Of a stretch of DNA of 36,243 nt, positions 1 through 430 are shown in pieces (positions within the stretch are counted from its first letter, which is position 1; each line of letters begins with the position of its first letter). The stretch comes from a virus, in the UHGV virus genome UHGV-0229041. One strand, 5' to 3'. The notes under the pieces are model-generated. The model was not told the DNA's origin and searched no databases. It saw only the letters and a list, made by a program, of their open reading frames with translations. The translations under genes and the position numbers were made by a program.

Positions 1-198
1 TGGAAATCCGTGACGAGCTCTACACGCATATCCAGACCTTAAGCTTCAGCTTTTTCGATACCCGCCCGGCCGGAAAGATCCTGGCGCGCATCATCGGCGA
101 TGTCAACTCGTTAAAGGATGTGCTGAACGACGGTGTCACAAAGCTGATTCCAAACATTCTCACGATCATCGCCATTCTGGTGATCATGATGATCATGA
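1..198 (+). pseudogene. ABC exporter transmembrane-domain fragment (internal, frame 3; no start in window)
   Basis: Frame 3 reads EIRDELYTHIQTLSFSFFDTRPAGKILARIIGDVNSLKDVLNDGVTKLIPNILTIIAILVIMMIMN, typical of the TM2-TM3 region of an ABC exporter; loses family-like sequence after about 198. Confidence 0.5.
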
Positions 199-204
199 AT
201 ACGC

Positions 205-430
205 AGAGGGCAACAAGCCCACGCCAGTATTTCTGCGCAATATTGACGTCGATGGCGTACTCCAGGAGCAGCGGGTTCACAGTGGAAATCGCGATGGTAA
301 CGGCGAGAACCACGAGAACGACGGCAACCTGGCGTTTATAATTTTTTAAGTAGGAGAAGAGGCGGCGGATGGTCGCGCTCTTTAAGACCTCTTTCTGCTC
401 TTCATCTACTTTACTGGAATTGATAGCCAT
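205..430 (-). pseudogene. ABC exporter N-terminal fragment (about 75 codons), truncated at a strand-switch junction
   Basis: MAINSSKVDEEQKEVLKSATIRRLFSYLKNYKRQVAVVLVVLAVTIAISTVNPLLLEYAIDVNIAQKYWRGLVALCV resembles an ABC exporter N-terminus and TM1; the rest of ORF 20..430 is the antisense shadow of the plus-strand fragment. Confidence 0.5.

Follow-up and report, generated by a model that had tools for sequence, protein, structure and literature searches.

Head-to-head ABC exporter fragments at the end of an E. coli prophage contig as a probable chimeric tail of Fusicatenibacter saccharivorans DNA

Chimeras that arise during multiple displacement amplification (MDA) with phi29 are mostly of one kind: 85% are inverted with an intervening deletion, and the distance between the joined sites is mostly below 10 kb (Lasken & Stockwell 2007, BMC Biotechnol 7:19, PMC1855051). 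One criterion for a template-switch chimera is complementarity of 2-21 nt at the priming site. Of the inverted junctions with sites less than 10 kb from each other, 93.5% have complementarity of at least 2 bp, against about 35% of the distant or intermolecular ones (PMC1855051). Ligation-based long-read libraries give inverted chimeras, as well as “cross” chimeras of unrelated molecules, in microbial community standards (PMC13141652). Strand switches are also documented within the coding regions of gut bacteria, where intragenic invertons with short flanking inverted repeats (down to 11 nt) leave the protein truncated or recoded (Chanin et al., PMC10028968). The genes affected in the DNA described here derive from a heterodimeric type IV (ABCB-like) ABC exporter pair of the kind found in Firmicutes.

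The window, that is, the whole stretch of DNA that was analyzed, comprises 36,243 nt of virus genome UHGV-0229041. Its first 680 nucleotides carry fragments of ABC exporter genes on opposite strands, and the remaining 35.6 kb are those of an E. coli prophage. Since the left tail is DNA of Fusicatenibacter saccharivorans, the contig links two phyla. The tail contains one junction at window 194/195 (J1), where the ABC exporter sequence folds back on itself, and ends at a second, at window 680/681 (J2), where it gives way to the prophage. Illegitimate junctions occur twice within 490 nt, across phyla and at the end of a contig, and this indicates a chimera of artefactual origin. For the head-to-head ABC pieces, a chimera made in sequencing or assembly is the best reading, in preference to a gene rearranged in a living genome. 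It is highly likely that the E. coli prophage contig has a chimeric tail, window 1-680, which forms part of no real replicon. Among the observations that count against an artefact is that window 1-680 differs from the reference sequences by only a few substitutions and does not look error-ridden.

A scan of species-representative genomes identified the source locus as that of F. saccharivorans (Lachnospiraceae), a human-gut Firmicute, with 99% protein identity for the first gene of the locus. The reference used throughout is the F. saccharivorans isolate AM67-22ACA (L003), in which two ABC exporter genes lie in tandem: gene 1 (6001-7764) encodes 587 aa, and gene 2 (7832-9616) is an intact ORF of 594 aa. 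Both genes have ABC_membrane and ABC_tran domains in Pfam; in the intact 594-aa gene these domains (PF00664 and PF00005) score E=1e-35 and E=8e-33, respectively. The tandem arrangement of the 587-aa and 594-aa genes is what the source locus has in common with the heterodimeric exporter pairs. In contrast to such pairs, the window holds only three fragments on inconsistent strands, and nothing functional is encoded; no ABC exporter gene with both PF00664 and PF00005 on one strand is present. The same two tandem genes occur in a Logan contig (L002, SRR31464302) that was reached from a match in a protein search with the N-terminus.

The three fragments and the spacer between two of them account for the entire tail. 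On the plus strand, window 1-195 matches reference 8148-8342 on the same strand at 97.9% identity by blastn, and the Logan contig at 2756-2949 (98.5% identity). This piece runs off the start of the window and represents codons 106-170 of gene 2 (TM2 cytoplasmic extension, intracellular loop 1, and TM3); its frame 3 (window 3-197) gives the uninterrupted translation EIRDELYTHIQTLSFSFFDTRPAGKILARIIGDVNSLKDVLNDGVTKLIPNILTIIAILVIMMI, which matches positions 76-138 of the Pfam ABC_membrane profile (E=3.7e-13). Window 194-680 matches reference 8068-7582 on the opposite strand at 99.0% identity. Within this minus-strand segment, window 194-430 is the 5' end of gene 2 (codons 1-79, with TM1 and the start of TM2; 99% identity to reference 8068-7832), and its translation from 430 down to 194 reads MAINSS...GLVALCVFM, the N-terminus of the protein. 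Window 431-497 is the native spacer between genes 1 and 2, in continuous 99% alignment with both the isolate and the Logan contig. Window 498-680 is the 3' end of gene 1 (the last 61 codons, that is, the C-terminal 60 NBD residues plus the stop; 99% identity to reference 7764-7582); the gene 1 ORF of the reference ends in ...ISSVQSADEILYLDHGRIAERGTHESLMAQKGLYYSTWEAQYGDYHKAKAALEQALPANA. The blastn layout of the window on the reference is repeated on four further sequences (L002, L021, L004, and L005).

The original prediction, which had placed an internal ABC exporter segment on the plus strand head to head with an N-terminus on the minus strand and had seen in this a strand-switch junction and not an intact gene, is thus borne out by the translations, Pfam, blastn mapping, and a three-way alignment. 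Its coordinates shift slightly: the pieces were thought to end at about 198 and 205, whereas they end at 195 and 194, which sets the true junction at 194/195. The suggestion that two truncated paralogs meet here fails, because alignment of both fragments to a single ABC exporter places them in one and the same gene, gene 2 of the reference, at 98-99% identity and only 80 nt apart (8068 and 8148). Nor does the plus-strand piece belong to an independent gene that stops naturally near position 200: the wild-type gene reads on as ...IMMIKNIWLSL. The junction is a strand switch within one gene and not a pair of paralogs, and it is very probably not a genomic inversion.

In all five of the other loci compared (one isolate genome, three MAG or bin contigs, and one Logan contig), the gene 2 stretch is collinear. 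It is an intact ORF in the isolate; the copy in the Logan contig is collinear too, with two single-base indels that split the ORF. These are an insertion (+1) and a deletion (-1), which lie 86 nt apart in the gene 2 region at L002 2439-2830 and after which the frame is regained. These paired indels are either sequencing error or a compensated frameshift. Another of the sequences, CAVLAW010000023.1 (L004), carries a 95%-identical copy of the Lachnospiraceae ABC operon and is filed under Tidjanibacter massiliensis (Bacteroidota), probably through mis-binning of the contig.

At J1, overlapping blastn segments and the three-way alignment show reference 8342 on the plus strand joined to reference 8068 on the minus strand. 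The path of the window along the reference runs from 8148 to 8342, turns strand at 8068, and returns to 7582, so that 273 nt (8069-8341) are skipped and the dinucleotide CA is common to both segments. The plus segment tracks the reference as far as ...GATGATCA, after which the reference continues with AAAAC; the reverse segment begins at CATGAATACG; and the point where they face each other lies within TGATCATGATGATCATGAAT (window 181-200). The near-palindrome that the original prediction had noticed at this point is present, although it is not a product of the junction. It is a 15-nt palindrome (TGATCAT-G-ATGATCA; TGATCATGATGATCA) at window 181-195 that ends exactly at J1 and is native to the wild-type gene (reference 8328-8342); the string is found in four of four wild-type sequences aligned and belongs to the inverted-repeat pair I2/I4. 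The residues read past J1, “MN” on the plus strand and “IIMITRMAM...” on the minus strand, are antisense or read-through and not protein.

The two breakpoints of J1 are both spanned by an imperfect inverted repeat of 18 nt (ATGGTTGTGATCAACCTG at reference 8066-8083 and CATGATGATCAAAAACAT at 8332-8349), with 14 of 18 positions matching (78%). A repeat this good or better occurs in 0.4% of 5,000 random breakpoint pairs at equal spacing, and this rarity fits annealing-driven strand switching. The microhomology of 2 nt is unremarkable by itself, as about 15% of random fold-back joins have at least 2 nt in common. The join of 8068 with 8342 sits 6 nt out of register with the repeat. A stable hairpin uniting the two breakpoints was considered and rejected: ssDNA folding of reference 8040-8375 leaves the repeat arms unpaired, and the stability of the fold is not out of the ordinary (z = -1.2).

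Two further repeats were observed near the start of the window. The first eight bases (TGGAAATC) recur at window 283-290, a match with a chance of about 2%, and in F. saccharivorans they form a perfect 8-nt inverted repeat (reference 7972-7979 and 8148-8155). The recurrence might mark a further strand switch just past the contig end. The window also starts 2 nt inside a 19-nt quasi-palindrome of 79% (reference 8146-8183).

J1 closely resembles the proximal chimeras of MDA. As in those, the second segment is inverted, both segments come from one locus and are separated by a deletion far below 10 kb (8148-8342 on the plus strand joined to 8068-7582 on the minus strand, with 273 nt lost), and the 3' end could have primed at the 2 nt of complementarity (CA) that such chimeras have at least. 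J1 differs from the typical case in that these 2 nt are the minimum and that two junctions lie on one short stretch. Ligation-prep fold-back reads (PMC13141652) are comparable as strand-switch chimeras that arise in vitro; a classical nanopore fold-back read, in contrast, turns at the end of the molecule and re-reads the same bases, whereas in the window the strand that comes back begins at a distance of 273 nt, and the arms do not overlap.

A strand switch can also be one end of an inversion, and the original prediction had named an inversion breakpoint as one of its two readings. J1 would then be the breakpoint of a real 274-bp inversion in the F. saccharivorans ABC exporter gene, either an intragenic inverton or an in vivo quasi-palindrome template switch, and J2 the only artefact. 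The geometry permits it: the reciprocal junction would lie 79 nt outside the window, and J1 by itself suits one junction of a simple inversion of 8069-8342. The 18-nt repeat across both breakpoints, so rare among random pairs, speaks for it as well, as do the documented invertons of gut bacteria with repeats down to 11 nt, which share with J1 the strand switch in a coding region beside a short inverted repeat. Conservative site-specific inversion is expected to take place in register with its inverted repeats, and the 6-nt offset of J1, with just 2 nt in common, departs from this. The intact ORF of the isolate and the collinear contigs listed above likewise oppose an inversion, since each of the five other loci has the reference orientation only. 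An exact-string scan found no J1 string in IMG/VR or in JGI metagenome contigs, and a tolerant pattern for the reciprocal junction found none in JGI metagenome contigs, which is weak negative evidence; a second orientation, such as an inverton would have, was not found in the public contigs scanned. Finally, the adjoining phage junction cannot be biological: a clearly illegitimate cross-phylum join lies 487 nt away on the same molecule, and a second artefact is the simpler reading. For these reasons an inversion in the genome is very unlikely. Slightly less probable still is its narrower form, a rare 274-bp inversion promoted by the 18-nt repeat, through in vivo template switching or as an unrecognised inverton, with only the phage join artefactual. 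If this were true, a fraction of the population would have the second subunit of its heterodimeric exporter turned off by the inversion, and a repeat-associated intragenic inversion would be one more case, in a common gut commensal, of phase variation of a known type.

The rest of the window, 681-36243, is an SfV/SfIV-like, thrW-integrating E. coli/Shigella prophage, which lies on the minus strand, is truncated inside tfa on the left, and ends at the integrase stop on the right. Its modules comprise a Mu-type tail (97-98% identical to that of the Shigella phages SfIV, SfI, and SfV), an HK97 head, and a lambdoid early region. The whole region is collinear with a prophage of E. coli MB15 (L085 1994-37973) in four aligned blocks of 88.6-98.9% identity. 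Three stretches remain unaligned by megablast, window 1259-1550, 7019-9380, and 11991-12308, which by position are the distal part of the tail fibre, the tape-measure region, and a head-tail gene; these stretches are ordinary phage mosaicism. A low-GC island is seen at window 24000-26000 (40%, vs about 52-59% in the structural genes) in the late-regulatory/nin region. In MB15, the corresponding genes are hypothetical or TagO-like; the island is likely to be moron cargo.

The tyrosine integrase gene occupies window 35080-36243 on the plus strand, and its stop codon forms the last three bases of the window (36241-36243). The start of thrW, a tRNA-Thr gene, lies 14 nt past the integrase stop in E. 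coli MB15 (L083 8744-8834), with proA after it. The thrW gene is the known attachment site of the SfV-like phage group. At its right end, the window looks as if it had been cut at a gene boundary or as if the contig had broken at the attachment site. With the integrase stop and thrW at the right, the phage part is ordinary, and its attachment-site end lies opposite to the ABC DNA.

J2 joins F. saccharivorans DNA (reference 7582) to the inside of the prophage gene tfa, 51 nt ahead of the natural tfa stop, and the partners have no base in common. Homology to F. saccharivorans stops at window 680, and the E. coli matches listed all begin at query base 82, which is window 681; the more distant E. 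coli MB15 copy begins at the same base, and the three-way alignment gives an overlap of 0 nt. In natural relatives, tfa runs on for 51 nt and is followed by a convergent tfa', the tail-fibre C-terminal cassette, and an invertase gene. A junction of this kind, without complementarity, is common among MDA chimeras with distant or intermolecular partners, and the 2 nt of J1 together with the 0 nt of J2 match the described difference between proximal and distant or intermolecular junctions (PMC1855051). The J2 string was not found in IMG/VR.

An artefact ORF of 244 aa (window 498-1232, minus strand) runs across J2 and fuses the N-terminus of tfa in frame to the C-terminus of the ABC NBD. Its N-terminal 184 residues are those of a tail-fibre-assembly protein, with the Pfam domain Caudo_TAP at residues 78-184 only, and its C-terminal 60 residues are the end of ABC gene 1. 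The exact fusion protein has no record in public collections, and the same holds for the other chimeric ORF. Neither the head-to-head ABC “genes” nor the fusion ORF of Tfa and ABC has a function; they are by-products.

J2 does not have the features of a prophage-host junction. It falls inside tfa and not at an att site, the integrase lies at the opposite end, and the flanking DNA is that of a Lachnospiraceae species; insertion of the prophage into an ABC gene, whether Mu-like or att-mediated, is ruled out by the position of J2 in tfa, by the integrase and thrW on the other side, and by a flank from another phylum. An origin of the ABC region in Enterobacteriaceae, a plasmid, or a phage was rejected as well, on searches of E. 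coli genomes and of phage and plasmid collections. None of 5,426 complete E. coli genomes matches window 1-700, phage records give only weak generic ABC matches (72-80% identity over parts of window 1-700), and plasmid collections give only weak generic ABC matches to the tail.

These searches also bear on the idea of a genuine recombinant E. coli prophage, in which illegitimate recombination in the gut would have captured 680 bp of Firmicute DNA in place of the distal end of the invertible tail-fibre segment. For the rest, the phage part is intact and remains collinear as far as the integrase, the fusion ORF is in frame, and phage tail-fibre ends are mosaic hot spots, as the blocks unaligned to MB15 illustrate. 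The in-frame fusion, however, is a 1-in-3 chance event, and the genome, phage, and plasmid searches speak against this reading. The captured piece would itself need a fold-back, its 99% identity to F. saccharivorans implies an extremely recent transfer across phyla, and E. coli sequence does not resume beyond the tail; the window simply ends. A Firmicute-capturing E. coli phage is even less likely than a real inversion, and thus highly improbable.

A purely computational misassembly, in which unrelated contigs are joined through common sequence or by scaffolding and no chimeric molecule ever existed, is about as improbable as a genomic inversion. The location of both junctions within 700 nt of the contig end would suit such an error, and aberrant tips are numerous in public metagenome scaffolds of the locus. 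A misjoin of the assembly graph at a common repeat is rejected, however: with overlaps of 2 nt and 0 nt there is no k-mer that a de Bruijn graph could walk, so chimeric molecules or reads existed, and there are no Ns of the kind left by scaffolding.

The aberrant tips in other records were seen when the 83-aa N-terminus was used as a protein query. The search returned 26 clusters (P0001-P0026), which contain only truncated, frameshifted, or fused versions (metagenomic short ORFs), and did not return the full-length 594-aa protein. Many distinct breakpoints in codons 36-100 are striking among these clusters. Three scaffolds inspected lose homology to F. saccharivorans abruptly and continue into unrelated tails of 223, 114, and 50 nt (L086 523-745, L087 692-805, and L088 1581-1630). 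Their breakpoints are other than J1 and J2, and they were used as a base rate, which indicates that such tips are common. A mutational hot spot for truncated N-termini was rejected, as three cases are these short scaffolds with unrelated tails and one is a contig with compensating single-base indels. The truncated versions are probably assembly or sequencing noise in an abundant gut species.

For the tail itself, we infer an in vitro origin, and the same applies to the specific process, which may be MDA, an end-repair hairpin, ligation, or a long-read chimera. The most likely cause is polymerase strand switching in vitro (as in MDA) or hairpin self-priming, followed by end joining. At J1, a DNA polymerase would have changed strands in vitro: a 3' end that terminated in ...GATGATCA-3', freed by displacement or denaturation, may have annealed anew about 270 nt upstream, on the strand it belonged to or on a sister strand, within the imperfect 18-nt inverted repeat, and would then have been extended backwards. 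Fold-back self-priming in end repair works in the same way as phi29 strand-switch priming. J2 may have formed by blunt ligation of the run-off end of this extension to a phage fragment unrelated to it, or by a template switch between molecules. In a more compact model, a single strand of reference 7582-8342 would fold back at the quasi-palindrome, be extended to its own 5' end at 7582, and be ligated at the resulting blunt end to the phage fragment. Extension to the 5' end would place J2 at the end of the returned arm, and the compact model predicts that the bases upstream of window position 1 would be reference 8147 downwards. The assembler would have retained the chimeric molecule because nothing contradicts it at a contig end.

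The main value of this finding lies in quality control, and the first 680 bases need to be trimmed before the contig is used as a phage genome. The fusion ORF at J2 would otherwise be mis-annotated as a novel protein, and the untrimmed tail would falsely suggest a novel Tfa-ABC fusion and an inverted ABC gene. It would also falsely suggest that an E. coli phage carries, or integrates into, a Firmicute ABC transporter, and so create a false host link or a false auxiliary gene.
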